Of a stretch of 52,938 bases of DNA, positions 5,233 through 42,685 are shown one piece after another (the stretch's first letter is position 1; each line of letters opens with the position of its first letter). The notes beneath the pieces were generated by a model, which was given only the letters and a program-made list of their open reading frames with translations, searched no databases and had not been told where the DNA came from. Origin of the DNA: an uncultured Candidatus Saccharibacteria bacterium (GTDB lineage: Bacteria; Patescibacteriota; Minisyncoccia; JACQLN01); NCBI GenBank assembly GCA_964526375.1, contig CAZGLK010000002.1, positions 1 to 52,938 of the forward strand, in the 5' to 3' direction. The position numbers and the translations under genes are program-made.

Positions 5233-5271
5233 TTCGCCCACAAAGTCGGGGGCAAGGTCAAACATACATTA

Positions 5272-7272
5272 ATGACCACTAGATTATTCGAGCCACGAAA
5301 GGCAGTGTTGCTGTTGGTCCTAACAGCCTTGTTTTTGCTCGTCCCGCTAAAACCGGCTTGGGCGGTTTTTGATTGCATCACGGATCCGATTGATTGCTTC
5401 ACCGATATTGTTTTGGTGGTTATAAACCTGGTGGTTGATTTTGTTGGTCTGGTTTTAATCGGCATTGCGGCCTCCGTAGTTAATTTTGTTTTTAATTTTC
5501 AGGGCTTTATTAAGGTGCCGGCGGTGCAGATCGGCTGGACTATGACTCGGGATGTTGCGAATATGGCTTTTATTTTAATAATGCTGGCCATGGCTTTTGG
5601 CACTATTTTGCGATATGAAAGCTATGGCTGGAAAAAGCTTCTGCCAAGATTGGTTATTATGGCGCTTCTTTTAAACTTTAGCCTGCTTATTGCCGGTGCG
5701 GTTATTGATGTCGGAAACAGCTTGGCCAGGTTTTTTATTACCGGCGGAGGAGACAATGATGTGGGAGACTTAATAATGACCTCCATTAGGGCCGGCTCCA
5801 TTGCCCAGTTGCGAAATAATGTCAGCGCTGGCAGCACAGGCACCGCCGTCGGCTCCGCCCTTAACTCCTTAATTATGGCATCTGTAATCCAGCTTATTTT
5901 TTATGTGGTTATTGCTTTTTTGCTTTTTGCTTTAGGTTTTATGATGATCTATCGCATTGTTCACTTATGGGTTCAGATTATTATGGCCCCCTTAGCCTGG
6001 GTGGGCTGGGCAATTCCTTTTGCCAGCGGATCAGCCAAAAAATGGTGGACCAGTTTCTTGCAATGGGCGTTTTTTCCGGCTTATGTTGGCTTTTTTATTT
6101 TTTTAGGAGCCTTGGTCGGCTCTACTTTAGGAGCCACGGATTTTAACCTCTTTGCCAAAGATGTAGGTGGTTTTTGGGACTGGCTTATTCCCACCACGCT
6201 TTTTTCCACCATAATGCAATTTATTGTGGTAATTACCATTCTCTTTATGGGCCTGAACAAAGCCAATAGCTGGGGCATAAGCGGCGCCAAAATGATGGTG
6301 GCCGCGGCCGAAAAAGGGCAAAAGTGGGCCAAGGACCAAGCTAAAACTTATGGCAAACGAGCTGCCGGGCGTCTGGCGGAAAAAGCTTTATACAAAAAAG
6401 GTGAGGGTGGCAAGAGAACCGATTTAAGAGAAGGCTTGCAAAGATTAGCTGGCACCGGCTACGGCGTTGGCAGGGTTGTTGGCCAAGCTCTGCGTTTGCC
6501 CACGGCTTTGATTGAACAACGCCAAAAACTAGTCAAGGGGGCCGAAGACAAGCTAAAGGGCAACTCCACGGCCACATTAAAGACAATATTTGCCGGCTTG
6601 GATGACATGGCAAAAGCCGCAATTTTGCGAGTTCTGGCCGACCGAGGCGATCTGGAATTTGTCAGCGAGGAAACCCTTATTGACAGAAAATTTAAGAAGG
6701 CGGGGTCAGACAAGAAATTCAAAGACCTTTCTGACACAGAAAAAGAGGCCGAACGGGCCCAGCTTACCGAGGAAGAAAAGAGAGAGATCGGCAAAATCAA
6801 TGAGGACAAAATGGGCGGAATAACCCAAGCCCGCTTTGAAGCGGCTCTAAAATTTAACGGCACGGCGGGGCTGGATAAAGAAATACTGAACGCCGCCCCG
6901 CAGTTTGCCGAAATCGTCGGCAAGAAAATAAAGGATGTTATTGAAAAAATATCTCCTGCCAATGCCGCTAAGATACAAGCTGGTTCCTTACAATTGCCGG
7001 AAGTCCAACAGGCTATTAAGGAAGCCCTAATGAATAATAAGTGGGACGGGAGTCAATTAAGCAGTATCGGCCAGAAAAATCCCAAGGCCTTAACCGATCT
7101 TATGGAATTTTTGGACAAGATGAGCGATGAAGAAAAGAGCAAGATGGCTAAGAGAACCCAAAATTACATGAAGGCTGGCGGCTATATTACCTTTACGCCT
7201 ACGCCGGAACCTACGGCAGAACCTACGCCGGCACCAACACCTGCACCAGCTCCAGCTCGCGGCGAGATATAA
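5272..7272 (+). CDS. VirB6/TrbL-like polytopic membrane protein with a long charged, Pro-rich tail
   Basis: The 666-aa ORF has at least 6 hydrophobic helices in its first 330 aa. A K/E-rich tail ends in TPTPEPTAEPTPAPTPAPAPA. It sits upstream of PrgI and VirB4. Confidence 0.7.
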   Translation: MTTRLFEPRKAVLLLVLTALFLLVPLKPAWAVFDCITDPIDCFTDIVLVVINLVVDFVGLVLIGIAASVVNFVFNFQGFIKVPAVQIGWTMTRDVANMAFILIMLAMAFGTILRYESYGWKKLLPRLVIMALLLNFSLLIAGAVIDVGNSLARFFITGGGDNDVGDLIMTSIRAGSIAQLRNNVSAGSTGTAVGSALNSLIMASVIQLIFYVVIAFLLFALGFMMIYRIVHLWVQIIMAPLAWVGWAIPFASGSAKKWWTSFLQWAFFPAYVGFFIFLGALVGSTLGATDFNLFAKDVGGFWDWLIPTTLFSTIMQFIVVITILFMGLNKANSWGISGAKMMVAAAEKGQKWAKDQAKTYGKRAAGRLAEKALYKKGEGGKRTDLREGLQRLAGTGYGVGRVVGQALRLPTALIEQRQKLVKGAEDKLKGNSTATLKTIFAGLDDMAKAAILRVLADRGDLEFVSEETLIDRKFKKAGSDKKFKDLSDTEKEAERAQLTEEEKREIGKINEDKMGGITQARFEAALKFNGTAGLDKEILNAAPQFAEIVGKKIKDVIEKISPANAAKIQAGSLQLPEVQQAIKEALMNNKWDGSQLSSIGQKNPKALTDLMEFLDKMSDEEKSKMAKRTQNYMKAGGYITFTPTPEPTAEPTPAPTPAPAPARGEI

Positions 7273-8457: not shown

Positions 8458-8733
8458 ATGCAATATCAGGTTCCCCAATTCATAGAACTAGAAGACAAAA
8501 TCGTGGGGCCGCTCACCCTAAAGCAGTTTGGCTACATTGCCGGCGCGGGCGCGATTTGTTTTTTGTTCTTTTTTACGCTCAAGTTCGGATTCGCCCTGTC
8601 TTTGTCGGTGCCCGTGGGCAGTTTGGCTTTGGCTTTGGCTTTTGGCAAAGTAAAGGGTACCGCCATGCCGCGTTATTTGATGTCCATGATCGGATTCGCG
8701 CTTAAACCGCAGATGTACTTTTGGCGGAAATGA
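8458..8733 (+). CDS. PrgI-family (VirB3-like) small membrane protein
   Basis: The 91-aa ORF starts MQYQVPQFIELEDKIVGPLTLKQF and has two TM helices. This is the classic PrgI layout, and it lies upstream of VirB4. Confidence 0.75.
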   Translation: MQYQVPQFIELEDKIVGPLTLKQFGYIAGAGAICFLFFFTLKFGFALSLSVPVGSLALALAFGKVKGTAMPRYLMSMIGFALKPQMYFWRK

Positions 8734-8836
8734 CAAATTTCAAAGCTCAAATGACAAACCAAATCCAAAAAACTAAATACCGGCTTTGAGTTTTGGGTTT
8801 TGAGTTTTATTTGACATTTGGATTTTGACATTTGTA
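8731..8836. repeat. Family-B palindrome, empty form
   Basis: TGACAAATTTCAAAGCTCAAATGACAAA ... TTTGACATTTGGATTTTGACATTTG form a hairpin with no ORF inside. Confidence 0.75.
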
Positions 8837-8847
8837 ATTTCTATCTT

Positions 8848-9530: not shown

Positions 9531-9658
9531 TTTGATAACATAATCCAAAAAATCCTAATGTATCCTAATGCTCCGAATGAACCAAAGTAATTGGATAACT
9601 AGGTAATTAAGTAGTTAGGAACATTCGGATGAATTAGTAGTTTGGGATTATTTTATCG
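9531..9658. repeat. Family-A long palindrome
   Basis: The outer arms are TTTGATAACATAATCCAAAAAATCCTAATG...GCTCCGAATGA and AACATTCGGATGAATTAGTAGTTTGGGATTATTTTATC. Confidence 0.85.
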
Positions 9659-12939: not shown

Positions 12940-13005
12940 AAAACAAAAAACAGCCGTGATATCAACCAGCAGGCCACGGCGAGAGTGGATATAAATGTTA
13001 CACAA

Positions 13006-13108
13006 TGACAAATTTCAAAGCTCAAATATCAAATCAAATCCAAATGACTAAATGACAAATTTGAATTTTGGGCTTTGGGTTTTATTTGACATTTGGATTT
13101 TGACATTA
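13006..13108. repeat. Family-B palindrome, empty form
   Basis: It uses the same CAAATTTCAAAGCTCAAAT / TTTGACATTTGGATTTTGACAT words as the copies at 8731 and 16656. Confidence 0.75.
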
Positions 13109-13128
13109 GACACTAAGAAAAAGTATTC

Positions 13129-17757: not shown

Positions 17758-19137
17758 ATGGATAAAGACGAGCTTTGGCAAACCGCTTTGGCGGAAATAG
17801 AATTAACTCTGTCAAAAGCCAATTTTGTTACCTGGTTCCGCAACACCTCCATAGCCCACAAAAAAGAGGGTGTGGTTTTAATATCCACCCCCAGCGCTTT
17901 TAACAAGGAGTGGTTGGAAAGCAAATACAATCTTTTGATTCTTAAAACATTGCGGGGTCTGGCCGGAGATGTTAAAGAAATAAAGTTCGCCATAAAGCCG
18001 CAGATAGAATCTGAAAGAAAAATCGCGCCGGCCAGAAAAAGAGAGTTTGGCCTGCCGCTATTAGCCGACCATCAGCTTAACATGGCCGACTTGGTTACCC
18101 CAGACAAAGAAACCAATCTTAACCCCAAATACACTTTTGACTCTTTTGTGGTAGGCTCTTCCAACGAACTGGCCCATGCCGCGGCGGTGGCTGTGAGCAA
18201 ACAACTCGGCACCACCTACAACCCCTTGTTTATTTACGGCGGGGTGGGTTTGGGCAAAACCCACCTTCTGCAGGCCATTGGCAACGCGGCCGTAAAAGCC
18301 GATGGCAAAATAAAGGTGCGGTATGTGTCTTCGGAAAAGTTTTTGGGTGAGCTTATCAACTCCATCCGCGGCAAAACCGTTGATAAATTTAAAGAGGAAT
18401 ACAAAAAAATAAACCTGCTCATAGTTGACGACATTCAATTTCTGGCCGGCAAGGAAAAAACCCAGGAGGAGTTCTTTCACATTTTTAACGAGCTTTACCA
18501 AAAAAACAACCAAATAGTGCTTTCTTCCGACCGGCCGCCCAAAGCCATAAACACCCTGGAGGAGCGGCTGCGCTCCCGTTTTGAGGGCGGCATGATCGCC
18601 GACATTATTCCGCCCGATTATGAAACCCGCATTGCCATATTAAAAAACAAAATGGCGGAAAGGGGGTTGGGCGATTTGGGTGAAGATGTTTTGTCTTACG
18701 TGGCCAATATGGTAACTAAAAATATCAGGGAGTTGGAGGGCGCCTTAAACAGAATATCAATGCTGGGCCAAACAGCCAGCCTGCCGCCAAGCCTAGATAA
18801 AGTCAAAACCGCCCTGGCTAACATCAACCACGCCAATACCGCCGTAAAAACAACGGCTAAGGCCATAATAAAAGCAGTGTCGGAGTTTTACGACATTAAA
18901 GAAGAGGATTTGATCAACCAATCCAGAAAAAGAGAAATAGTTCTGCCGCGCCAAATTTGCATGTATTTGATGCGTGAGGAGTTAAAGAGCTCCTACCCCT
19001 TTATTGGCGAGAGATTCGGCGGCCGAGACCACACCACAGTTATGCATGCCTGTGATAAAATAAACAAAATCCTGCAAACCAGCGAGGGTTTGAGCGACGA
19101 AATCAGCACTATTAAAAACAAAGTCTACGAATCTTAA
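17758..19137 (+). CDS. dnaA: Chromosomal replication initiator DnaA
   Basis: The 459-aa ORF has Walker A GGVGLGKTHL, the segment LLIVDDIQFL, and the C-terminal DNA-binding motif GGRDHTTVMHA. Confidence 0.97.
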   Translation: MDKDELWQTALAEIELTLSKANFVTWFRNTSIAHKKEGVVLISTPSAFNKEWLESKYNLLILKTLRGLAGDVKEIKFAIKPQIESERKIAPARKREFGLPLLADHQLNMADLVTPDKETNLNPKYTFDSFVVGSSNELAHAAAVAVSKQLGTTYNPLFIYGGVGLGKTHLLQAIGNAAVKADGKIKVRYVSSEKFLGELINSIRGKTVDKFKEEYKKINLLIVDDIQFLAGKEKTQEEFFHIFNELYQKNNQIVLSSDRPPKAINTLEERLRSRFEGGMIADIIPPDYETRIAILKNKMAERGLGDLGEDVLSYVANMVTKNIRELEGALNRISMLGQTASLPPSLDKVKTALANINHANTAVKTTAKAIIKAVSEFYDIKEEDLINQSRKREIVLPRQICMYLMREELKSSYPFIGERFGGRDHTTVMHACDKINKILQTSEGLSDEISTIKNKVYES

Positions 19138-26747: not shown

Positions 26748-26808
26748 TCTACCAATGAATCAGTAAATTTGTAACTATTAGTAATTGGTAGGGGGTCACC
26801 GTTCTTTC

Positions 26809-26841
26809 AAAACCGCCCCGAGCTTGTCGAGGGGCGGTTTT
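26809..26841. terminator. Hairpin at the left edge of the island, overlapping the fic stop
   Basis: The hairpin is AAAACCGCCCC-GAGCTTGTCGA-GGGGCGGTTTT. It is preceded by GGGGGTCACC and GTTCTTTC, and a near-identical hairpin lies at 34369-34403. Confidence 0.7.
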
Positions 26842-27943
26842 ATATCTTACGGTATCTTGTGGTTCGGCCAAGTCCGAGCCGCTCCACTTTTTTCAAGCGG
26901 AGGAGTTTGTCCAGCGCTTGATTAATGGTTCGACGAGCAACGCCCGTGGCTTTGGAAATCTCTCCGGGTGTGGCCGCGTCGGTTTTTTGTAGATAATTCC
27001 ACACGGCCAATTGTTTTGGCGACAAGAGTTTTTCTATGTTCTCCTTCGAGAGAAGGTCGACCGCCAGTTGCGCCTGTTTCAATAACACGCCGAAAAAGAA
27101 ATCCAACCAGGGCGCAATATCTTCGTGCCCCGATTTAAATGTCTTTTGACTTCTTCGTAAGGCCACATAGTAATCGGGCTTATTATCTTCAACCAACTTC
27201 TCGTGGGGTACATAAGGCACATACAGATATCCCTCTTTGAGTAAAAGAAGATTGGTGAGAACGCGGGACAGCCGGCCGTTGCCATCTTGGAATGGATGAA
27301 TGTTGAGAAATTCAACCAGGAAGTTCCCTATAACAAGGAGAGGGTGATATTTTTTCTCCGAGAGAGCTTCCTGGGTCCATTCCACCAGCTCCTGCATCTC
27401 TTTAGGAACAAGGTATGCCGGCGTGGTGTCAAAAAGAACGCCGACTGATTCTCCAAGCTCGTTAATCATCTGCACCCGGTTCTCTTGCTTCTTGTATTCG
27501 CCGCGGTGGATTTGGTCTTTCTCTACATATTTAAGAAGCTCGCCATGGAAATGTTTTATTGAGCTTTCCGAAAAGCTTAAACTTTTCCCCGCCGCCGCTA
27601 AAGCTTTGGCGGGCGGGCATGAATCAAACACATTCTCCAGAAGCTCGTAGTACCCCCGCACTTCCTGCTTATCGCGATCAGTGAACTTCTGTATGGCAAT
27701 GCCGCGCATCATTTTTTCAATATCTTCATCGGAAAGTTTGGCCCCCTCAATGCGGGTGGACGCCCCCGTAGAGGTAACCAAAGTTGACCGCTTGAGGCGG
27801 CCTAAAACTTGAGGGCTAAGCTGGGCTCCAGCGATCCACTGCCCCTTAAGCTCATCTATTTGTTTGAACTTTGACCAGACCTCGGAGGATAGCCCTTCGA
27901 GCCGTAGGTCAAAACGAGGTTTTTGAGTAACCGGCTCGTCCAT
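26840..27943 (-). CDS. fic: Fic/DOC family protein with a C-terminal winged-helix domain
   Basis: The 367-aa ORF has the Fic motif HPFQDGNGRLSR. Its C-terminus AVWNYLQK...TPGEISKATGVARRTINQALDKL is wHTH-like. Confidence 0.9.
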   Translation of the reverse strand: MDEPVTQKPRFDLRLEGLSSEVWSKFKQIDELKGQWIAGAQLSPQVLGRLKRSTLVTSTGASTRIEGAKLSDEDIEKMMRGIAIQKFTDRDKQEVRGYYELLENVFDSCPPAKALAAAGKSLSFSESSIKHFHGELLKYVEKDQIHRGEYKKQENRVQMINELGESVGVLFDTTPAYLVPKEMQELVEWTQEALSEKKYHPLLVIGNFLVEFLNIHPFQDGNGRLSRVLTNLLLLKEGYLYVPYVPHEKLVEDNKPDYYVALRRSQKTFKSGHEDIAPWLDFFFGVLLKQAQLAVDLLSKENIEKLLSPKQLAVWNYLQKTDAATPGEISKATGVARRTINQALDKLLRLKKVERLGLGRTTRYRKI

Positions 27944-28069
27944 ATGATCTTAATAATCTTACATTTCAAGTATAGAAGATTATGCAAGATTAATCAATGG
28001 CGTTCTGTGGGCAAAAGCCCTATCTTACATATATGCAGGAAAGCCCACAAATAAAGGACTTTTTTGTGC

Positions 28070-28098
28070 TTGACAAGCATACCATGATTTGCTATAAT
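28070..28098 (+). promoter_or_regulatory. Consensus sigma70-type promoter P1
   Basis: TTGACA lies at 28070-28075 and TATAAT at 28093-28098, with a spacer of exactly 17 nt. Confidence 0.7.
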
Positions 28099-28218
28099 GG
28101 AACCATACGATAGAAATGCTGGTTGGGGCTGTTTAGCAGGGGTGCCTGCACCGAGCTAGTCGAGATGCCGGACCCAAACCCCGAAAGCTGGCATAGTAAT
28201 CCTTCACAGGGCAGGGTC

Positions 28219-28247
28219 TTGACAAACAGATATGCTTGGTATATAAT
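28219..28247 (+). promoter_or_regulatory. Consensus sigma70-type promoter P2
   Basis: TTGACA lies at 28219-28224 and TATAAT at 28242-28247, with a 17-nt spacer. Confidence 0.7.
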
Positions 28248-28253
28248 GGAGGT

Positions 28254-28426
28254 GTAAGCTGAAAGTACCTAATAAAACATAATAAAGTCTAAGCTTCTAG
28301 AGGAGAGAGTCTGGGGCTGGGATATTAAGGTATATTAAGGTGCAGGTTATATATAGCCCCAAACAACAACCCAAAAAGCGGTTGAAAGATTCTTTCCTTT
28401 AAGAAGGCGTCTTTCAACCGCTTTTT
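28254..28426 (+). ncRNA. Candidate sRNA of about 170 nt, bounded by P2 and an intrinsic terminator
   Basis: There is no credible ORF. An internal hairpin GGGGCT...AGCCCC is present. The terminator stem is AGCGGTTGAAAG (28377-28388) with CTTTCAACCGCT (28411-28422), followed by TTTT. Confidence 0.5.
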
Positions 28427-28697
28427 AGATATCTGGCGAGGAGAAAGATGGAGGAGAGAATTAAGCCGTGGTGGCGAGGCTTCGGGTTTAGCCCAAGTCT
28501 GGCTACTAAACACGTTTTGAGAATATTGGCGGAAGCGGAAATGCAACCCGCAACCATAGGGCAAAATTCCGCGGCGCAAGTTCTCATCAATTCTTCTCTA
28601 TCTTTCTCCCCAACCACAAGCGAAGGGAGAGTTAAATTCCTGATGTTCTTTTCAAATCTTTTCCGCGGCACCGACGTATTCGGGCAGGGGAAAAATT

Positions 28698-29129
28698 ATG
28701 AAGGCCACAAGTTTCTTGTTTCTCGCGGCGCTCTTCGTCAGTGCAATAGGCTGCACCGACACCCGGCCTTTTTACAGGTCGGTTCTGCAGGATAAAGAAG
28801 TCGTTGTGAAGCTCACTGAGGCAATTTGGCTGCATGGCGATACTACGTGCGCCATCACCAAGCTGGCCCGTCAGCTGGATGCCGAAAGACGAGCAGACGT
28901 CCGGAGGCCGTATTCGCCCGTAAACGCGGATCGTATGCTTTGGGAGGAAATCCATAAGGTTGTCATAGACAATTGGTATTCTTCCACGGATACCATGCGT
29001 GCAGAAGTACGGCGGACCTTGGACCTTTGGCTTTCTCCCGAGAAATCAAGTAAGGCCGAGGTGTGGGTGATGCCTGTAACGGTCCATTACCGCTTTGACC
29101 CCGATCAGGTTTATCTGACAAAGAAGTAA
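28698..29129 (+). CDS. Hypothetical lipoprotein
   Basis: The 143-aa ORF has a signal peptide with the lipobox FVSAIGC. A GGGGAAAAATT ribosome-binding region precedes the ATG. Confidence 0.7.
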   Translation: MKATSFLFLAALFVSAIGCTDTRPFYRSVLQDKEVVVKLTEAIWLHGDTTCAITKLARQLDAERRADVRRPYSPVNADRMLWEEIHKVVIDNWYSSTDTMRAEVRRTLDLWLSPEKSSKAEVWVMPVTVHYRFDPDQVYLTKK

Positions 29130-29172
29130 AGGATTGGGAGGCTCTGCGAACAAAAAAATTCGCATTCCTCCC

Positions 29173-29235
29173 TCTGTCTCCCGATGTATGTCGGGACTGA
29201 TGAGCCCTTTGATAGTTACCGCAGGGCGAAACAGA
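29173..29235 (+). ncRNA. Type III hammerhead self-cleaving ribozyme
   Basis: Stem III pairs TCTGT (29173-29177) with ACAGA (29231-29235). The cleavage triplet is GUC, with C17 at 29178. Stem I is TCCCGA-TGTATG-TCGGGA (29179-29196). The core CTGATGA lies at 29197-29203. Stem II is GCCCT-14 nt-AGGGC (29204-29227), and GAAA lies at 29228-29231. Confidence 0.85.
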
Positions 29236-29279
29236 AAATTGCTTGCACCGAGCTAGCCGATATTCTTTGAAAATCAATA

Positions 29280-29537
29280 TTAGCGGTAAATGTCTTTGCG
29301 GTGGTCAATGTCAAAAAAGATCGCTGTTTCTGCGTGCTGCAAATAAAAAAGCACCCGGAAATTGCGAGTGACCCTGAAAGAAAGAGCATGAGGGAGGATT
29401 TTAACTTTTTTGATGTGCAGCCGCGGGTCGCACCAGTTCTTTTGAAACGAACTCTTTTGAGTAAAATAGAGCCGCTGAATTTCCTTAGGCAGTTTGTTTA
29501 GTGACCTTTCAAAATCATCGGTCTGGATTATCTCCAT
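29280..29537 (-). CDS. RelE/ParE-superfamily toxin
   Basis: The 85-aa basic ORF overlaps the upstream small ORF by 10 nt. Its C-terminus FRVLFYLQHAETAIFFDIDHRKDIY resembles the RelE/YafQ type. Confidence 0.7.
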   Translation of the reverse strand: MEIIQTDDFERSLNKLPKEIQRLYFTQKSSFQKNWCDPRLHIKKVKILPHALSFRVTRNFRVLFYLQHAETAIFFDIDHRKDIYR

Positions 29538-29737
29538 ACGGAAGACACCGGCGGATATTTCTTTATGGCTTTTTCATAGGATCGTTTGATCCGTTGCGGG
29601 TGAGCATAGCCGACCAGATCTTCTTGAGGGAAAAGAAATTCAACCTCGCTTCTTAGCAGGCGGAGTTCCTCAATGACCGTTCCCAAGAGCTCGTTAGTGG
29701 CCGCAGCAGAGGTCTTATCTTTTGTGAGTATTTCCAT
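29528..29737 (-). CDS. Cognate antitoxin (family not recognised)
   Basis: The 69-aa ORF lies immediately upstream of the toxin and overlaps it. Confidence 0.55.
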   Translation of the reverse strand: MEILTKDKTSAAATNELLGTVIEELRLLRSEVEFLFPQEDLVGYAHPQRIKRSYEKAIKKYPPVSSVWR

Positions 29738-29782
29738 TAACCATGATTATAGTTTATCACCAAAGGTATGTCAATTTTCTTT

Positions 29783-29861
29783 CTAACCCACCCCTCAACA
29801 ACACGCGGATACACGCGGATCAAAACGCGGATACACGCGGATAGATTGAAGGGTGAGTTAG
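29783..29861. repeat. Hairpin element with an ACGCGGAT word loop (unit A head)
   Basis: CTAACCCACCCCTCAA (29783-29798) pairs with TTGAAGGGTGAGTTAG (29846-29861). The loop holds four ACGCGGAT words. Confidence 0.75.
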
Positions 29862-29939
29862 GGAGAGAAGGACTCTTCCGAAGGCGACGCGTGCCTATAA
29901 AGTGCGAGCCATGTAAACACCTGAAAGGAGGTGAAAAGC

Positions 29940-30197
29940 ATGGCAAGTAAGGATCTTTGGGTGGAGATTAAACTCCACCCGGAGGCCGAGCCGGTTTGGG
30001 CTCGGAGAGAGGTCCCGCCCGCAGTTGTCCAGGAGTTCCAAAGGATCCTGGATACTGGGGGTGGTGAGCACATCTCCTTTCCCTATCCCGACGATTCTGA
30101 AAGAATCGTTTCGGAGGTGGGGGGGCGAGATGTGGTTCTCTCTGTGCCCTCTCGGGCACGGGGAGGGAACTACGTGATCCATTTTTTGGGTCACTGA
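29940..30197 (+). CDS. Small acidic hypothetical protein (unit A payload, 85 aa)
   Basis: The ATG lies 9 nt after AAAGGAGGTGA, a near-perfect SD. The leader is conserved with unit B. I recognise no family. Confidence 0.6.
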   Translation: MASKDLWVEIKLHPEAEPVWARREVPPAVVQEFQRILDTGGGEHISFPYPDDSERIVSEVGGRDVVLSVPSRARGGNYVIHFLGH

Positions 30198-30234
30198 TTC
30201 CCGTTCCCGAAACCCGCCCCCACCGCGGTAATGT

Positions 30235-30466
30235 GGGGAGATGGCGCAGGTTGACGCCATACTGAAGCGGTCTTGATTGACGCGATACTAACCCGTGCCT
30301 GATGGCAGGCAGCCCGTGGAAACACGACGGGTATACGGGGAATAAGTGTCAGTAGAGACCGCCAGTCCAGACGAACAGCAGGACAACACTCCTTGCTGTT
30401 CAGGATTCAACCACAGGGCCGCCAAAGAGCTCGGCCCTAATCCCGAAGCACTCGGGAAAGCTCAAG
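30235..30466 (+). repeat. 232-nt structured element, copy 1 (candidate unclassified ncRNA)
   Basis: By eye it is identical to 31722-31953. It contains a 3-way junction (ACCCGT/ACGGGT closing GCCTG-ATGG-CAGGC and CGTG-GAAA-CACG). Further hairpins are GAACAGCA../..TGCTGTTC, GGGCCG/CGGCCC and CCCGA/TCGGG. Confidence 0.7.
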
Positions 30467-30641
30467 ATTTTGGGAGAGTTGCCAGAGATGACAGCTCTCC
30501 CCCTTATCCGAGTTCATCGTCTCTTTCCGCGTAAATCAGCGTTCTAATCTGCGTTGATCCGCGTAAAGTAAGGGTGGATTCAGAGGAGGGAAAAACATTC
30601 TCATATTCTGCAGAATGTTAGAATGTTGGTTCTTTGAGAAA

Positions 30642-30869
30642 TTAAGCAGGAGTTAGAACAACTTCAACGGGAAGAGGAACGGCCGTATGTTTCGCCTTCA
30701 TTCGGTGGGCAAAATTAAGCACCGTAAAACCCTTAACCTTGCGAGTTTTGGGGTCAAGGCGAAGAATCACATCGTTGGCGGCCTCTTCGCTGCGATCTTT
30801 TGCGGATGGCTTGCCTTGAGAGATGTAGAGTATGTCGGCCTCTTGGTCGTAGTAATAATAGAGTTGCAT
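30642..30869 (-). CDS. DUF2283-type small protein (antitoxin-like)
   Basis: The 75-aa ORF contains YYYDQEADILYISQG ... VKGFTVLNF, typical of DUF2283. Confidence 0.7.
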   Translation of the reverse strand: MQLYYYYDQEADILYISQGKPSAKDRSEEAANDVILRLDPKTRKVKGFTVLNFAHRMKAKHTAVPLPVEVVLTPA

Positions 30870-30873
30870 AATT

Positions 30874-31146
30874 TTAATGTTTGATTTTAGAGGTTAAGTA
30901 TATGGTAAGTATAAAGTTGCGTTGATTGGTTTTCACTACTACCACAAGATGTTTCCTCTGGCTGATTGGACTATAGCATATTTGCACCCTTGGATCAAAT
31001 TTCGATTGGCTAATAATACTGGGTTTGGCAAGTACTTGCTTAATCCGTTTCAGATAGCGTCTAACTTCTGGGTGGAATTTAAGAACATGCTCAACCCTTT
31101 CGTTAGTCAGCTCAACTTCTCCAAACGGCGAATCAAACTTCTTCAT
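30874..31146 (-). CDS. Putative toxin partner of DUF2283 (DUF4258 / RelE-barnase-like)
   Basis: The ATG at 31146 (MKKFDSPFGEV) gives a 90-aa protein. It contains ERVEHVLKFHPEV and LVVVVKTNQRNFILTIY, and lies 4 nt upstream of the DUF2283 gene. Confidence 0.55.
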   Translation of the reverse strand: MKKFDSPFGEVELTNERVEHVLKFHPEVRRYLKRIKQVLAKPSIISQSKFDPRVQICYSPISQRKHLVVVVKTNQRNFILTIYLTSKIKH

Positions 31147-31190
31147 TTTGATATTATACCTCAACGCTAATCCGTAGCCAATTTTCTTCT

Positions 31191-31292
31191 CTAACCCACC
31201 CCTCAACAATACGCGGATTAACCCCTCGACTTCGCTCAGGGCAAGCGCGGACTAAACGCGGATCTACGCGGATAGATTGAAGGGTGAGTTAG
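31191..31292. repeat. Hairpin element with an ACGCGGAT word loop (unit B head)
   Basis: The arms are the same as at 29783-29861 (CTAACCCACCCCTCAA / TTGAAGGGTGAGTTAG), but the loop is longer. Confidence 0.75.
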
Positions 31293-31377
31293 GGAGAGAA
31301 ATGCTCTTCCTATCAAAGGCGACGCGTGCCTATATAAAGTGCGAGCCATGTAAAACACCTGAAAGGAGGTGAAAGAT

Positions 31378-31686
31378 ATGGCAAAGGCATTTTCTTTCGT
31401 CCTTTACACCCAAGCCGGCGGGTACGACGGCTATGTGGTGGTTCAGGATGAGAGGACGGCAGACGCCACAGACGATTTGATTCGATCTGTGGTGGATCCC
31501 GAAGGGGAAATTTCTTTCGTCGGGGGAGTCCATCTGACTCCTTTTGGCGAGGGAGAACCCCAATCCCTCTGGCAGACAATCTGTCAGGAAGAAGAGGGGT
31601 TCCTTTTCGGAGGTGATTTGGCCGCAATGCTCGCCCGGACGCCAGCAGAGAAGCTGGTGAACCGGGTGGAGTACTACGGTCATTAA
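31378..31686 (+). CDS. Small highly acidic hypothetical protein (unit B payload, 102 aa)
   Basis: The ATG follows the same AAAGGAGGTGA leader. The protein is unrelated to the unit A payload, and both end in GH. Confidence 0.6.
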   Translation: MAKAFSFVLYTQAGGYDGYVVVQDERTADATDDLIRSVVDPEGEISFVGGVHLTPFGEGEPQSLWQTICQEEEGFLFGGDLAAMLARTPAEKLVNRVEYYGH

Positions 31687-31721
31687 GCCGCCCCGCCCTA
31701 ACCCTCCCCCTAGGGTCACAA

Positions 31722-31953
31722 GGGGAGATGGCGCAGGTTGACGCCATACTGAAGCGGTCTTGATTGACGCGATACTAACCCGTGCCTGATGGCAGGCAGC
31801 CCGTGGAAACACGACGGGTATACGGGGAATAAGTGTCAGTAGAGACCGCCAGTCCAGACGAACAGCAGGACAACACTCCTTGCTGTTCAGGATTCAACCA
31901 CAGGGCCGCCAAAGAGCTCGGCCCTAATCCCGAAGCACTCGGGAAAGCTCAAG
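31722..31953 (+). repeat. 232-nt structured element, copy 2
   Basis: By eye it is identical to 30235-30466. Confidence 0.7.
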
Positions 31954-32094
31954 TTTTGGGGAGAGGGTCTCAAAAAAGAGAATCTCTCCCCACCTTATCC
32001 GAGTTCATCATCCGCGTTTATCCGTTTGCCAATCTGCGTATATCCGCGATGTGTATGGTGGATTCAGAGGAGGGAGGTGTTCTTTGAAAAAAAA

Positions 32095-32307
32095 TTACAA
32101 ATCTTCTTCTGAAACGCCAGCTTGTTTTAGGATTGAATGAAGCGTGCCCTTGGGCAGGTCTTTGGTGTGGTAGGGTACGGATGCTCGTTTCTTCTTTTGC
32201 GGGTGATAAAAAATATAATGGCTTCCAGTAGCATAGTCTAACTGAAAGCCAAGACGTTTGAGAATAACAATAACCTTTTTGGGTGTAAGAGACGGGATCT
32301 TAGGCAT
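32095..32307 (-). CDS. hicA: HicA toxin
   Basis: The 70-aa ORF contains KKVIVILKRLGFQLDYATGSHYIF and LPKGTLHSILKQAG. Confidence 0.88.
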   Translation of the reverse strand: MPKIPSLTPKKVIVILKRLGFQLDYATGSHYIFYHPQKKKRASVPYHTKDLPKGTLHSILKQAGVSEEDL

Positions 32308-32557
32308 GGGCGGAAGCCTTTTCGCGGACAGGTTCCTTTATCTGAATAGAAGCAATGAATGTTTCTTCGTCTGAAGGAATTAGTTCACGATGTTTTCTAA
32401 GGCTCGCGATATATCCTTCGACGGCATCCCGCGCCATATTTTTGGCTTCGGTAAGGTTTTTCCCGTAACTAACGCAACCTGGCAAGGCCGGAACAAAAAC
32501 CGTAAACCCGCCCTCCGGTTCCGGACGAAGAATGATATTGTAATTGAGTATTTTCAT
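32300..32557 (-). CDS. hicB: HicB antitoxin
   Basis: The ATG at 32557 gives MKILNYNIILRPEPEGGFTVFVPALPGCVSYG. The gene overlaps hicA by 8 nt, and the longer track ORF (to 32869) is a spurious extension. Confidence 0.85.
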   Translation of the reverse strand: MKILNYNIILRPEPEGGFTVFVPALPGCVSYGKNLTEAKNMARDAVEGYIASLRKHRELIPSDEETFIASIQIKEPVREKASAHA

Positions 32558-32762
32558 ACACCAATATGGTATCAAACAAAATCCAATGTTGCAAATTTTT
32601 CCCCTAACCCACCCCTCAACAACGCGCGCCTGCCTGCGGCAGGCAGGGATATACGCGGTGTGATCTCTCACAAGATAGTTTAGTAAGTTGTTTTGTGAGA
32701 GGTCGCACGGTGCGGCTTCTGTAAAGACTTGGGGCCAATCCCAAGCAGGAAAGGAGGGTGCT

Positions 32763-33350
32763 ATGAAAATAGTGCTCTGCGGGCCGCCAAGGTCCGGCAA
32801 GTCCTGCTTGAGGGAAGGCCTCAAGCAGGCGGTGCGGCGTATTCCTGGAGCGCCGTATCCGTATGTCATAACCGGGTGCCCTGACGGGGAGGGCGCCTGG
32901 TTCCAGGAGACTGTGAACTTGGATCCCGAATTGGCGGCGCGGTGTAAGGCCGCCTATAAATCCAAGTTCACAACGGAATTCGTGCGGAGGGTCGCGGATT
33001 CCGTAAAAAGTTGTAACCTTCCTTTGACGCTCGTGGACATTGGTGGCATCCCGAGCGCTGAGAACGAGGAGATTTGCTCCTCGGCCACCCACGCCATTTT
33101 GCTGGCGGGCGATCTTGATCGTCTGCCCGAGTGGCGCGAGTTCTGCGGGAAGCTGGGTCTCCGCATCATCGCGGAGATCCATAGCGATTACCGTGGAACT
33201 GAAGACACCGCTCCTTCGCTCGGCGAGGATGGTGTCTGGAGTGGATCGGTTCATTACCTCGAAAGAGGCGAGCCGGTCCACGAGCGCCCGACAGTCAAGG
33301 CGCTCGCCGAGACCCTCGCGCAGATGGCTACTGCAGCAGAGGAGAACTAA
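32763..33350 (+). CDS. P-loop NTPase (possible Csx3-associated ATPase module)
   Basis: The ATG at 32763 follows GGAAAGGAGGG. Walker A is GPPRSGKS, and LTLVDIGG is Walker B/DxxG-like. The protein is 195 aa. Confidence 0.6.
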   Translation: MKIVLCGPPRSGKSCLREGLKQAVRRIPGAPYPYVITGCPDGEGAWFQETVNLDPELAARCKAAYKSKFTTEFVRRVADSVKSCNLPLTLVDIGGIPSAENEEICSSATHAILLAGDLDRLPEWREFCGKLGLRIIAEIHSDYRGTEDTAPSLGEDGVWSGSVHYLERGEPVHERPTVKALAETLAQMATAAEEN

Positions 33351-33486
33351 AACAGCCGCTCGGCGCGTTCCTTGCCAGCGCGTCCGGGTTTCCAAAAAAC
33401 AAAGGCTCAAAAAAAAGAGCCGCCTCTCCCAAGCTTGCCATAGTTTGGGTGACAAGAGGGGTCTCCTTGAGAAGAAAGGAGGAGAT

Positions 33487-33795
33487 ATGGCGGCGTATAA
33501 AATTTTTTTGGAGGGCGGAGACGTCCTCCGGGTCGGGTTCGGCGACCCGGCCCAGAACGACGCGATCTGCCGGGACGCCGCCCGGCAGCTGGAGGAGCTT
33601 GTCTCCTCCGGAGCCCTGGCCGGTGGCTCAGTTATTAAAATAAACGGCCCCGCCTCCTTGCCCGTGGCGGTGGTGTTCGCTCACGCGATTGGCCACCTCT
33701 ACGAGGCGGTGGCGGTGTTCGACCCCAAGCTGGGGAAGTATGTCGTGGCGGTTAGCCACGGTGTCCAGCTCGGGGTCGGCGACCTGATCGACTAG
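33487..33795 (+). CDS. csx3: Csx3/Crn3-like protein (putative cyclic oligoadenylate ring nuclease)
   Basis: The ATG follows GAAAGGAGGAG and the protein is 102 aa. IKINGPASLPVAVVFAHAIGHLYEAVAVFDPKLGKYVVAVSHG...GDLI matches, from memory, the Csx3 pattern GRGPIWL..H..H..VAVYDPRLG..VVVQSH..GDVI. Confidence 0.55.
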   Translation: MAAYKIFLEGGDVLRVGFGDPAQNDAICRDAARQLEELVSSGALAGGSVIKINGPASLPVAVVFAHAIGHLYEAVAVFDPKLGKYVVAVSHGVQLGVGDLID

Positions 33796-33860
33796 CCATC
33801 GGTCAGGAAAAAACTCCCGAGTGGCGCTCGGGGCATTCACCTGAAAGGAGGTGAAAAAAC

Positions 33861-33995
33861 ATGGAGGAGTTCGGCCGCTTTGTCGCGGCCATCCCGCCAC
33901 GGGACGTTTTGGCCCTGTTGGTGGGGTGGGCGGGCCTGCTCCTTTGCGTCGCTGACGCAGTGGAGCGGCTCCTTAACGAGAAATTTCCTCGTTAA
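33861..33995 (+). CDS. Possible 44-aa hydrophobic peptide (third payload behind the shared SD)
   Basis: CACCTGAAAGGAGGTGAAAA lies at 33839-33858 and the ATG at 33861. My translation gives MEEFGRFVAAIPPRDVLALLVGWAGLLLCVADAVERLLNEKFPR. Confidence 0.4.
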   Translation: MEEFGRFVAAIPPRDVLALLVGWAGLLLCVADAVERLLNEKFPR

Positions 33996-34368
33996 AAGGT
34001 CCCCGCCCTCGTCAAATCCCCGGTCACGGAGCCGGGGTTGCCCGAAAGTCCACGGGCGTAAAAGTATGGGTAAAAGGCCAGGGGGTTGCCTGACGCGCAC
34101 TCGTCAAAAACCCTCTCTGTTCTCCGCCCAAGGCGGACTGACGAGCTCCCACTTTCGCCAAGAAGCTTCAGCGGGCAGGCAAAAGAGTGGAAACAGACCG
34201 CCGTGGTGGGCGGACGAGAATTGGGGAAATCTTTTATGCCCCCCTGATTCGCAAAAACACCAGTCCTTATAAAGCTGTGAGCTGGAAAAATCTCTCTCCT
34301 TGGTTTTGTTGAAGGTTCTTTGAGAATTTTTAACGAAACAATCCAGTTCGCAGCTTTATGGGGGCTAC

Positions 34369-37700: not shown

Positions 37701-37816
37701 TTGATAACATAATCCCAAAAATCCTAATGTATCCTAATGCTCCGAATGAATTATGAATAAGGAATTAAGTATTGGGAGCATTCGGATAAATTCGTAGTTT
37801 GGGATTATTTTATCAG
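37701..37816. repeat. Family-A long palindrome
   Basis: The sequence is TTGATAACATAATCCCAAAAATCCTAATGTATCCTAATGCTCCGAATGA ... GGGAGCATTCGGATAAATTCGTAGTTTGGGATTATTTTATC. Confidence 0.85.
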
Positions 37817-40233: not shown

Positions 40234-42591
40234 ATGGCAAGCAACAGAGAATTGGTGATTATAGATTCCCACGCCTTGATCCACCGCGCTTACCACGCCC
40301 TGCCGCCCTTAAGTTCGCCCCAAGGCGAGCCGGTGCAGGCGGTCTATGGTTTTACCAGTATATTGATTAAGGTGCTAAAGGAATTAAAACCCGACTATGT
40401 GGCCGCGGCTTTTGACGTGGCCGGGCCGGTTTTTCGCCAAGCCGAGTTAAAAAGCTACAAAGCCCAGCGCCCTGAAACCGAAAGCGATCTGGCCAGCCAG
40501 TTTCCCTGGGTTAGGCAGGTGCTTGAGGCCGTGGGCATACCGGTACTGGAAAAGTTTGGTTTTGAGGCCGATGATGTCATCGGTACCATAGTTGAGAAAA
40601 CCAAAAACGAATCTGGTTTGGAAACCATTATCGTCACCGGTGACCTGGATGCTCTGCAGTTGGTTCGTGGCGAGCGGGTGAGGGTTTACACCCTGCGCAA
40701 GGGTATCACCGACACCGTTATCTACAATGAAAAGGCGGTTAAGGAACGTTTTGGCGGTTTGGGCCCGGAGCAAATGACCGATTACAAGGGCTTAAAGGGT
40801 GATCCTTCGGACAATATCCCCGGCGTACCGGGGGTGGGTGAAAAAACTGCTATTGAACTCTTGAAGGAATACGGTAGCTTAGAGAATATGTACGGCAAGG
40901 TGGAAAAATTCTCCGCCGAAGGCGGATCCGCCTCTGGCGGAAAAATCCAAAACCCCCCGAAGCAGAGCAGGCTCGCTACGGGGCAGGCAAAACTATTTGA
41001 TAAACTCCTGGCGCACAAAGAGCAGGCGTTTTTGAGCAAGCGAATGGCCGTGATTAGGCGGGATGTGCCGGTGGATTTTGATTTGTCTCAAGCCAAGTTC
41101 AGTCCGGTGGTTGATGACAATGCCAAAAACATATTTAATCGTTTGGGCTTTAAGAGTTTGCTGGGGCGGTGGGGTGAGCTGGCTGATAGTTGGAATGGGA
41201 AGGTTGGCACGAAGTCAGGAATCTCACAGAGTATCCTTCGGGATCGTGATAGTAACAATGACAATGACAATGACAATGACGATGACAATGACGATGACAA
41301 TGACGATGACAATAACGAATATGATGAATTGGAGGTCTACTACAAAAAAGGCATTTTTTCGGAACGAATTTATAAACTGGAAAAGGCCTTACGGCCGGTT
41401 TTGCGGCGCATGGAGGCGGTTGGTTTTTTGGTGGATGTTAAGGCGCTGAAAAGTTTGGAGATAAAAATAAACAGGGAATTGGAGCGGGTTAAAAAAGTAG
41501 TGGTGTCGTTGGCCGGTGAGGAGTTTAATTTAAACTCCACTCAAGAACTGGGCCGGATTCTTTTTGAGAAAATCGGTTTGGGCGGAGTCCGGGTTAAAAA
41601 AACCAAAACCGGGGCTTATTCCACCGCTTTTGATCAGTTGGAGAAAATAAAAACCAGCCACCCCATTGTGCCCCTAATGTTAAAATGGCGCGAGCTGTCT
41701 AAACTCCAGTCCACTTATGTGGAGGCCTTGCCCAAATTGGTCAGCCGCGCTGATGGTCGTATCCACACCACCTTTAAGCAGTTGGGCGCGGTTACCGGGC
41801 GGTTGGCTTCGGAGAATCCCAATGTGCAGAATATCCCCATTAGAGGAGAATATGGTCTGGAAATCCGCAAGGCCTTTGTGGCTCGGCCGGGTTTTGTTAT
41901 TCTTTCGGCTGATTATTCTCAAATAGAACTGCGGGTGGCCGCGGCTTTGTCGGGCGACGAGAAAATGATAGAAACATTTAAGCGCGGCGAGGATATTCAT
42001 GCCCGCACCGCCGCCGAAATTTTTAATGTATTGCCGAGCGAGGTTACCAAAGATATGCGCCAGGCGGCCAAGACTCTAAACTTTGGAGTGCTTTATGGTA
42101 TGGGTCCGCGGGCTTTTGCCCAGGCGGCCGGGGTGAGTTTTGAGGAGGCCAAAAAATTCATCCATGAATATGAAAATGGCTTTGCGGGCTTGGCTAGGTT
42201 TATTCGCGAGCTTAAAGACAAAGCCCGCGCGCAGGGTTTTGTGGAAACCTTGTGGGGCCGAAAACGGTTTGTTGATTTATCCTCGCCCAACCCCATGCTG
42301 CGCGCTGCCGCCGAGCGCGAGGCCGTTAACATGCCTATTCAAGGCACGGCCACGGGTGATATCATTAAAGCCGCCATGGTGGCTTTGGACAAAGCCCTCG
42401 GGCCAGCCGCGGACATTTACATGATTCTGCAGGTGCACGATGAGTTGGTGTTTGAGGTTAAAAAAGAGGTGCTAGAAAAGTACGCGCCGATCATTAAAAA
42501 AACAATGGAAAATGTAATCAAACTGGCAGTGCCGTTGGCGGTGGAGCTGGAGGCGGGGAGGAGTTGGGGGGAACTAAAAAAGATAACATAA
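40234..42591 (+). CDS. polA: DNA polymerase I (5'-nuclease + polymerase domains)
   Basis: The 785-aa ORF contains DSHALIHRAYHA and LTGDPSDNIPGVPGVGEKTA (5'-nuclease). The polymerase motifs are SADYSQIELR and QVHDELVFE. A (D/N)-only tract lies at the domain junction. Confidence 0.95.
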   Translation: MASNRELVIIDSHALIHRAYHALPPLSSPQGEPVQAVYGFTSILIKVLKELKPDYVAAAFDVAGPVFRQAELKSYKAQRPETESDLASQFPWVRQVLEAVGIPVLEKFGFEADDVIGTIVEKTKNESGLETIIVTGDLDALQLVRGERVRVYTLRKGITDTVIYNEKAVKERFGGLGPEQMTDYKGLKGDPSDNIPGVPGVGEKTAIELLKEYGSLENMYGKVEKFSAEGGSASGGKIQNPPKQSRLATGQAKLFDKLLAHKEQAFLSKRMAVIRRDVPVDFDLSQAKFSPVVDDNAKNIFNRLGFKSLLGRWGELADSWNGKVGTKSGISQSILRDRDSNNDNDNDNDDDNDDDNDDDNNEYDELEVYYKKGIFSERIYKLEKALRPVLRRMEAVGFLVDVKALKSLEIKINRELERVKKVVVSLAGEEFNLNSTQELGRILFEKIGLGGVRVKKTKTGAYSTAFDQLEKIKTSHPIVPLMLKWRELSKLQSTYVEALPKLVSRADGRIHTTFKQLGAVTGRLASENPNVQNIPIRGEYGLEIRKAFVARPGFVILSADYSQIELRVAAALSGDEKMIETFKRGEDIHARTAAEIFNVLPSEVTKDMRQAAKTLNFGVLYGMGPRAFAQAAGVSFEEAKKFIHEYENGFAGLARFIRELKDKARAQGFVETLWGRKRFVDLSSPNPMLRAAAEREAVNMPIQGTATGDIIKAAMVALDKALGPAADIYMILQVHDELVFEVKKEVLEKYAPIIKKTMENVIKLAVPLAVELEAGRSWGELKKIT

Positions 42592-42685
42592 TCCTAAAAA
42601 TCCTAATGTATCCTAATACTCCGAATATACGCGCAAGCAATTGGGAGCATTGGGATAAATTCGTAGTTTGGGATTATTTTATCAA
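42582..42685. repeat. Family-A long palindrome overlapping the polA stop
   Basis: The sequence is GATAACATAATCCTAAAAATCCTAATGTATCCTAATACTCCGAAT ... GGGAGCATTGGGATAAATTCGTAGTTTGGGATTATTTTATC. Confidence 0.85.

Follow-up and report, generated by a model that had tools for sequence, protein, structure and literature searches.

A type III hammerhead ribozyme beside a cargo gene in a toxin-antitoxin cassette island of an uncultured Candidatus Saccharibacteria bacterium

Hammerhead ribozymes of bacteria typically flank small, non-conserved open reading frames (ORFs) (PMC6155905, PMC3088659), and their biological role is unsettled (PMC6155905, PMC6765202). Bacterial self-cleaving ribozymes are also known to cluster and to share gene neighborhoods (PMC6765202, PMC3088659, PMC6155905), a point on which the literature agrees with the original prediction made for the present locus, and the logic of shared neighborhoods led to the twister-sister, pistol, and hatchet ribozymes (PMC6765202). 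Here, we describe HH1, a type III hammerhead ribozyme located at positions 29173 to 29235 on the plus strand of a contig from an uncultured Candidatus Saccharibacteria bacterium; the stretch analyzed, 52,938 nt in length, is hereafter called the window.

Like the bacterial and phage hammerheads reported by Perreault et al. in 2011 (PMC3088659), HH1 is intergenic, accompanies a co-oriented small non-conserved ORF, and lies in a variable and probably mobile region. With respect to the acceptance rules of that study (PMC3088659), HH1 has no core mismatch and is paired at 1.1-2.1, 10.1-11.1, and 15.1-16.1. Unlike bacterial and phage hammerheads (PMC3088659, PMC6155905), it is a single intact ribozyme, where others occur as several around one gene, and belongs to a toxin-antitoxin cassette island between housekeeping genes, and no prophage or integrase gene was found among the neighboring proteins scanned against Pfam. 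The arrangement recalls the shared neighborhoods of twister and hammerhead ribozymes (PMC6765202) in that the ribozyme slot is filled, in sister units of the island, by another structured RNA; the sister RNA (30198-30640), however, matches no Rfam ribozyme and is at most a candidate for cleavage. Keyword searches of the literature returned no account of an association between hammerheads and toxin-antitoxin genes or of cassette arrays in Patescibacteria, which is no proof of absence.

Anatomy of HH1 and its Rfam score

HH1 is a genuine type III hammerhead ribozyme, whose self-cleavage is itself predicted from the sequence. The original prediction of a canonical type III element is borne out by the agreement of the sequence, two covariance models, a descriptor combined with shuffles, and covarying relatives. 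The parts of the ribozyme are as follows.

29173..29235 (+): HH1, complete type III hammerhead ribozyme (sequence, RF00008, our own covariance model R1, descriptor, and minimum free energy [MFE] fold)
Between C29178 (C17) and U29179 (+): predicted cut (sequence)
29173-29177 (+): 5' strand of stem III, U16.5-U16.1, UCUGU (sequence)
29179..29196 (+): stem I hairpin UCCCGA-UGUAUG-UCGGGA, 29179-29184 paired with 29191-29196
29197..29203 (+): catalytic core strand C3-A9, CUGAUGA
29204-29208 with 29223-29227 (+): stem II, GCCCU/AGGGC, with G10.1-C11.1 as the closing pair and a 14-nt loop, UUGAUAGUUACCGC
29228-29230 (+): G12-A13-A14
29231-29235 (+): 3' strand of stem III, A15.1-A15.5, ACAGA

Three helices surround the core: stem I, of 6 bp or of 7 bp when the optional U85-G90 wobble is counted, which carries the loop UGUAUG; stem II, of 5 bp and likewise capped by a loop; and stem III, of 5 bp and open. 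HH1 has the invariant core C3-U4-G5-A6-N7-G8-A9 together with G12-A13-A14. Its N-U-H cleavage triplet is G29176-U29177-C29178, in which H17 is not G and the U pairs with A29231 (A15.1-U16.1), and the junction pairs N1.1-N2.1 and G10.1-C11.1 correspond to U29179-A29196 and G29204-C29227. No defect is seen in any of the 11 invariant core nucleotides or the three junction pairs, the stems are perfect, and each element named in the original prediction (the GUC triplet with cleavage after C29178, stem I, CUGAUGA, stem II, GAAA, and stem III) lies where it had been placed. The MFE structure of the isolated 73-nt HH1 RNA is the three-way junction (-22 kcal/mol, z = -2.5). Fast cleavage by type III hammerheads at physiological Mg2+ depends on a tertiary contact between loops 1 and 2; by eye, these loops share in HH1 a Watson-Crick complementarity of only 3 bp, too short to call a pseudoknot.

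The original prediction had called for a search with the Hammerhead_3 covariance model. RF00008 (Hammerhead_3, clan CL00010) indeed aligns to HH1 over the full model, positions 1-54, with E-values of 5.2e-7 in a 201-nt segment, 2e-5 in the 7.8-kb island, and 1.4e-4 in the whole 52.9-kb window; the score of 37.6 bits falls, however, below the gathering score of 48.5 bits, which is a cut-off set by curators and no biological feature. HH1 shares with the RF00008 type III hammerhead the invariant core, the GUC triplet, A15.1-U16.1, G10.1-C11.1, the capped stems I and II, and the open stem III. Its low score arises because, unlike the model, loop 1 carries 5 inserted nt and loop 2 has 14 nt instead of 6, the long stem II loop being the main cause. 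With RF00008, seven relatives that represent five distinct lineages likewise reach no more than 31-39 bits, so the cut-off excludes the whole subgroup. Since clear relatives share the low scores and the homolog of HH1 in a related array, L139, is missed by Rfam, a score below the gathering threshold, which the original prediction had named as grounds for refutation and which formally applies to HH1, is uninformative here.

Two further lines of evidence are independent of RF00008. A strict descriptor, requiring U16.1-H17, a stem I hairpin of at least 4 bp, CUGANGA, a G-C-closed stem II of at least 3 bp, GAAA, and a stem III of at least 4 bp, has HH1 as its sole match on both strands of the window and 0 matches in 300 dinucleotide-preserving shuffles. 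Moreover, the covariance model R1, built from nine relatives found elsewhere and with the window sequence left out, scores HH1 at 60.3 bits (E = 4.8e-17). Under permissive settings, Rfam found no ribozyme of any other family either in the island or across the entire window. Two results stand against the assignment, the second only mildly: an Rfam scan of the window at gathering thresholds gave zero matches, the score of HH1 being below threshold, and when HH1 is folded within 171 nt of surrounding sequence, the two strands of stem III find other partners in the MFE structure. Mispairing of hammerheads is frequent in thermodynamic folding and is a known weakness of such predictions.

With one intact hammerhead in 52.9 kb and a second match, 4.9 kb away, that is defective, we discarded the idea of a circular-RNA element such as a viroid-like RNA or a retrozyme, in which tandem copies or a pair of ribozymes of equal polarity bound the circularizing unit.

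Relatives of HH1 and covariation

Relatives were sought with the pattern GGGACTGATGAGCCCN{8,30}GGGCGAAAC, which demands only the core with the preceding 3' strand of stem I, the stem II base, and the pair that opens stem III. GTDB genomes yielded three sites, two of them in assemblies of uncultured Gammaproteobacteria and the third in a Candidatus Paceibacter assembly, and metagenome contigs yielded 11, whereas IMG/VR gave 0 matches. At 13 of the 14 sites, the elements left free by the pattern (a GUH triplet, a stem III, and the 5' strand of stem I) are all present. In the alignment of 10 distinct sequences, 90.7% of the pair cells pair, compared to 35-52% in slid controls, a figure to be read knowing that parts of stems I and II were fixed beforehand by the search pattern. 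Double-sided changes occur at 7 pairs, 5 of which belong to stem III, where positions 15.3/16.3 and 15.4/16.4 are fully compensatory. That homologs retain pairing through compensatory change points to selection on the hammerhead fold.

Members of the subgroup occupy different places with respect to genes. At L002/L003, L125, and L127, the hammerhead lies 14-25 nt upstream of a start codon, and at L004, L130, and L133 an intrinsic terminator is found within about 20-50 nt on the 3' side of the ribozyme. No terminator follows the ribozyme in the window or in L134, where the hammerhead precedes a convergent DUF2283 gene; both are convergent junctions with toxin-antitoxin genes, and subgroup ribozymes lying 3' of a gene sit at convergent junctions. 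A strong hairpin abuts stem III, 0-1 nt away from it, in the window, L004, and L126/L129, and these hairpins are unrelated in sequence.

Type III hammerheads at large are abundant and well known (PMC3088659, PMC6155905), in line with the more than 120 sites that a generic type III pattern found in viral contigs, of which 84 adopt the complete type III fold. The commonest loop 1 in 71 type III hammerheads of viral contigs is UGUGUG, and the UGUAUG of HH1 is one substitution away.

Several of the contigs carrying relatives present features of their own. In the Candidatus Paceibacter assembly, the stretch 2365-2500 (-) of L004 holds a GC-rich, hydrophobic ORF of 44 aa in AT-rich surroundings; a GC hairpin comes next, then the hammerhead, then an intrinsic terminator, and the whole forms a compact single-gene unit that resembles cassette 1 of the window. 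At L137/L138, 2278-2332 (-), a hammerhead of the same lineage (GAU-GUGU-AUC, CUGAUGA, and stem II GUCC/GGAC) shows a C-A mismatch at 1.1-2.1, pairs poorly in stem III, and sits between two rve-family transposase genes. Two contigs with a subgroup hammerhead contain 16S rRNA genes (L125, 181-967; L133, 825-2290), and a group I intron-like sequence (39 bits) splits the one in L125. Group I introns in 16S rRNA genes are a trait reported for candidate-phyla bacteria.

The 3' junction of the cargo gene and the proposed role of HH1

HH1 lies between a small gene on its own strand and a convergent toxin-antitoxin pair, within the first of four units of the island (unit 1). The features of this junction and of the region upstream are listed below.

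28698..29129 (+): cargo ORF of unit 1, 143 aa (gene call on the source contig), with a signal-peptide- and lipobox-like N terminus, MKATSFLFLAALFVSAIGC
29136..29172 (+): stable hairpin GGGAGG..UGCGAA-loop-UUCGCA..CCUCCC, -16.9 kcal/mol, z = -4.8
29240..29273 (+): unit boundary, a 24-nt box TGCTTGCACCGAGCTAGCCGATAT followed by ATTCTTTGAAAA
29280..29737 (-): ParE-like toxin gene and putative antitoxin gene (gene calls; Pfam ParE_toxin at 17 bits, weak and below the cut-off)
28070-28098 and 28219-28247 (+): two perfect sigma-70 consensus promoters, with 12/12 consensus matches each
28373-28426 (+): terminator-like hairpin with 24-nt arms, flanked by A and T runs
28143-28166 and 29240-29263 (+): 24-nt direct repeat TGCYTGCACCGAGCTAGYCGAKAT, bracketing promoter 2, the cargo gene, and HH1

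The cargo ORF, whose stop (29129) ends 43 nt before HH1, putatively encodes a lipoprotein. The hairpin that the original prediction had seen between the lipoprotein stop and the ribozyme is real; its last base immediately precedes stem III of HH1, which it directly abuts. We rejected this hairpin as an intrinsic terminator, as it has no U-tract (UCUGUCUCCC follows) and is absent from the list of the terminator scan. On the other side, the convergent ParE-like gene has its stop codon 45 nt beyond HH1, and plus-strand read-through past HH1 would be antisense to the ParE-like toxin-antitoxin genes.

Hammerheads act by internal transesterification on the 3' side of H17, which leaves a 2',3'-cyclic phosphate and a 5'-OH. 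Upon plus-strand transcription, stems I, II, and III would assemble around the CUGAUGA/GAA core, and the RNA would cut itself after C29178. The upstream fragment would then be the cargo mRNA, ending in the hairpin 29136-29172 and UCUGUC with a 2',3'-cyclic phosphate, and the downstream fragment would begin with a 5'-OH at U29179 and carry the body of the ribozyme. Cleavage would provide the cargo mRNA with a defined, hairpin-protected 3' end and would uncouple it from read-through RNA antisense to the convergent toxin-antitoxin operon. It is from hammerhead chemistry and local anatomy that we infer, as did the original prediction, a structured 3' end and a detached downstream RNA.

We consider it likely that HH1 is the 3' untranslated region (UTR) type III hammerhead of the cargo gene and that its self-cleavage would serve in mRNA 3'-end formation and insulation. 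That no terminator was detected and that a ParE-like pair converges on the junction make this the most likely role. A role at the 3' end is also supported by the hairpins that recur next to stem III in L004 and L126/L129 and by the convergent junctions at which ribozymes 3' of a gene lie. A functional analogy, and only that, may be drawn with RiboJ, an engineered ribozyme insulator placed 5' of a gene with a hairpin downstream of the ribozyme: there, as is proposed for HH1, a type III hammerhead next to a hairpin separates coding RNA from its context. The analogy extends to the 3'-UTR hammerheads of mammalian CLEC2 genes, where cleavage in the 3' UTR alters the fate of the mRNA, although those ribozymes are discontinuous and eukaryotic.

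The same junction could be read the other way around, the purpose of an active HH1 being the downstream RNA itself, which would start with a 5'-OH at U29179, run antisense into the ParE-like operon, and either modulate that module or be shielded from 5'-end-dependent RNases. In favor of this, the terminator scan found no plus-strand terminator-like site from 29235 to 30776, and the next genes are convergent; L134 repeats this arrangement with its hammerhead and convergent DUF2283 gene, and the ribozymes situated 14-25 nt before a start codon (L002, L003, L125, and L127) would process the 5' end of a downstream RNA. We nevertheless judge this explanation unlikely, because the terminators that follow the ribozymes of L004, L130, and L133 at about 20-50 nt leave no functional downstream RNA and because nothing beyond the boundary box is conserved in 29236-29280.

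Several observations weigh against 3'-end formation and insulation as the role of HH1. The 143-aa cargo ORF is an orphan, retrieving only itself among 5.8 billion proteins and having no Pfam match, and counts as a putative gene. The strong terminator-like hairpin 28373-28426 separates the only consensus promoters from the cargo ORF, which makes the promoter driving unit 1 ambiguous. An upstream hairpin accompanies only 3 of the 10 distinct subgroup members, other members lying 5' of genes, and consequently no single role fits the subgroup; what suits it best is a generic "cut here" insulator module that could work on the 5' or the 3' side of a gene. Finally, the decay of HH2, a homolog of HH1 in the fourth unit of the island, implies that such elements can be dispensable.

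Within 28070-28440 (+), the two promoters are followed by a strongly structured stretch (z = -4.5) that ends in the hairpin 28373-28426; ahead of the lipoprotein gene, it may represent an attenuator or a small RNA.

The cassette island and the slot of the ribozyme

Housekeeping genes flank the island (26801-34326): those for DnaN, YebC, RuvC, TyrRS, and a class A penicillin-binding protein (PBP) precede it, and those for RuvB and a PilB-like ATPase follow. The island comprises four units delimited by five plus-strand copies of RTTCTTTSARAA, a motif with 6 matches in the window against 0.15 expected, the sixth being on the minus strand. Each unit has toxin-type genes on the minus strand: a Fic gene with a helix-turn-helix domain in unit 1, the ParE-like pair in unit 2, a DUF2283 gene and its partner in unit 3, and HicAB in unit 4. 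On the plus strand, a leader and a 3' RNA region frame the cargo of each unit; this cargo is an ORF of 143 aa in unit 1, of 85 aa in unit 2, and of 102 aa in unit 3, and a P-loop protein plus a Csx3-like protein in unit 4. The cargo ORFs of units 2 and 3 are not homologous, and the 85-aa ORF, for which homologs were sought in the hope of syntenic ribozymes, yielded none and is thus an orphan. Units 2 and 3 have leaders that are 78% identical and 3' regions that are 90% identical over 361 nt and 99% over 244 nt. The elements that recur between units are the following.

30198-30640 (cassette 2) and 31687-32078 (cassette 3) (+): large 3' trailer RNA
34114..34199 (+): HH2, decayed hammerhead homolog in the 3' slot of cassette 4 (R1 score of 19.5 bits, E about 1e-4 to 8e-4)
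Cassette leader sequence: CACCTGAAAGGAGGTG
Cassette end boxes, in order: CTTAYCCGAG, GGNGGATTCAGAKGAGGG, GTTCTTTNMRAA

For the trailer RNA of unit 2 (30198-30640), folding gives -191 kcal/mol (z = -8.6) and a closed multibranch structure with several GNRA-capped hairpins. The large trailer RNA has no match to any Rfam family, none to an Rfam ribozyme even at E ≤ 1, and none in GenBank phages, and a 24-mer taken from it had 0 matches in IMG/VR. According to the original prediction, HH1 occupies the same slot as a 232-nt element repeated in the next two units. The shared slot holds approximately, HH1 ending 27 nt before the boundary motif at 29262 and the repeated element of units 2 and 3 ending 4-38 nt before its own; this element measures 244 nt at 99% identity or 361 nt at 90%. 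The idea of a shared slot is strengthened by the L139 array, which has a canonical hammerhead there, and by unit 4 of the window, which has a decayed copy.

Conserved hairpins (CACCUGAAAGGAGGUG) at 29918-29933, 31356-31371, and 33838-33853 (+) sequester the Shine-Dalgarno sequence 6-8 nt before the cargo start codon, and L139 has a similar Shine-Dalgarno hairpin (GCCAGAAAUGGCAGGAGGUG), which suggests that the cargo genes are controlled at the level of translation. In cassette 4, the cargo consists of a P-loop NTPase-like ORF (32763-33350) and a Csx3-like ORF (33487-33795), both on the plus strand; the latter scores 21.7 bits with Pfam Cas_csx3 for a cut-off of 21, and no CRISPR array or cas genes surfaced in the window scans.

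L139, from another metagenome, contains a related array at 2150-5700 (-), in which Fic and its promoter region have 80% nucleotide identity to the window and HicAB 65%. Its leaders are of the same style, and its boundary boxes CTTAYCCGAG, GGNGGATTCAGAKGAGGG, and GTTCTTT align with those of units 2 and 3. In the slot equivalent to that of HH1 (unit c; cargo strand, 2379-2298) lies a canonical type III hammerhead, UCUGU U / CAGAGAU-GUGU-AUCUCUG CUGAUGA GUCC-35 nt-GGAC GAAA CAGA, which has in common with HH1 the sequence of stem III, the loop 1 region, and a GAUAG-containing loop 2, and which Rfam, with a stem II interior of 35 nt, does not detect. Relative to HH1, the hammerheads of L139 and L137 keep GAU-GURU-RUC, and stem I differs by compensatory change, from UCCC/GGGA to CAGA/UCUG.

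HH2 shares with the L139 hammerhead the 5' flank AAAAACCCTCTCTGTT and the interior of stem II. We rejected HH2 as a second active ribozyme: it has an extra nucleotide at 1.1, GAGUG replaces the stem II-closing GGAC, so that the G10.1-C11.1 pair is lost, and its fold is no better than that of shuffles, CUGACGAG being able to pair instead with an upstream CUCGUCA. The sequence suggests that HH2 is probably a decayed copy of a canonical ancestor like the L139 hammerhead. This clear decay of a sister element would also suit an HH1 that looks intact but is a functionless passenger of a mobile cassette, untranscribed or unselected here, as would the orphan status of the cargo genes and the ambiguous promoter situation. 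Against this, the 11 invariant core nucleotides, the three junction pairs, and the stems of HH1 are all intact, its loop 1 fits the common consensus, and homologs keep the pairing by compensatory change; we therefore regard a passenger as quite improbable.

The Fic protein of unit 1 has thousands of homologs at 75-87% identity, and the named sources are mostly Patescibacteria, which together with the relatives L004 and L125 is a weak indication that the window comes from that group. We dismissed Fic as a predictor of the hammerhead, as none occurs in the 62 kb around five other Fic loci that lack toxin-antitoxin arrays, from which it follows that the ribozyme goes with the array and not with Fic.

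The cassette-like look of the island, together with a repeated boundary motif only 27 nt away, would also be compatible with a resemblance due to chance or with a DNA-level site such as an integron attC-like folded recombination site. However, none of the 300 shuffles gave a descriptor match, the independent model R1 returned E = 4.8e-17, and relatives of HH1 occur in unrelated contexts without the motif, fuzzy matches being at a background of 0.8 per kb. Moreover, GTTCTTTSARAA is unlike the attC core GTTRRRY, the boundary motif RTTCTTTSARAA fits neither RYYYAAC nor GTTRRRY on either strand, and neither an IntI integrase nor any recombinase turned up among the neighbors tested (Fic, TyrRS, PBP, RuvB, and PilB-like). 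This explanation, to which we give almost no weight, is effectively refuted.

We also set aside the GTTCTTTSARAA motif as a companion of the ribozyme, its fuzzy matches near relatives being at the background rate, and a likeness to it at L004 (GTTCTTGCAGA) is probably due to chance. In unit 2, the box of the leader and that of the 3' side agree by eye at only 12 of 22 positions, and no direct repeat is claimed. The 24-nt direct repeat of unit 1 may be a diverged CTTAYCCGAG boundary box or a cassette-exchange site.

Elsewhere in the window, long imperfect palindromes and direct repeats of short simple words (such as AATTAGG, TTTGACA, and CCTAAT) flank many genes and are intergenic genome-wide (for example, 9532-9657, 37701-37814, 42580-42683, 8729-8840, and 13004-13114; also 1900-1960 of L004). 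A sub-threshold Rfam match to AsdA (40.8 bits for a gathering score of 52) at 18235-18310 (-) falls inside a 459-aa ORF (17758-19137) that we take to be dnaA and probably reflects the conservation of the coding sequence; AsdA is an antisense RNA of dnaA.

The 3' module is a hammerhead in unit 1 of the window and in unit c of L139, a decayed hammerhead in unit 4 of the window, and the large RNA in units 2 and 3. HH1 probably belongs to a group of homologous hammerheads found repeatedly as the 3' module in toxin-antitoxin-plus-cargo arrays of uncultured, probably patescibacterial, genomes. A bolder proposal, which we advance as doubtful, is that HH1 is an interchangeable 3' module of an undescribed family of mobile toxin-antitoxin-plus-cargo cassettes in Patescibacteria-like genomes and that the alternative module, the RNA of ~400 nt, does the same processing job. 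A cassette of this family would have a toxin or toxin-antitoxin gene on one strand and, on the other, a conserved leader with a Shine-Dalgarno-sequestering hairpin, an orphan cargo ORF unrelated to those of other cassettes, a 3' RNA module, and, at the end, the conserved boxes.

The hammerhead class itself is long known, with thousands of examples in bacteria, and the setting is the less ordinary part of our findings: a single intact ribozyme, an abutting hairpin, a convergent junction without a detected terminator, and a recurring array make up an unusual context. An entire environmental subgroup, part of it from candidate-phyla bacteria, falls below the gathering cut-off of Rfam for type III hammerheads. 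Because the context of HH1 is readable, it offers a concrete hypothesis, that of 3' ends made by a ribozyme and of insulation between convergent units. The neighboring large structured RNA is a candidate functional equivalent of the hammerhead and, should the modules prove interchangeable, this ~400-nt RNA could represent a new class of self-cleaving or processing RNA.

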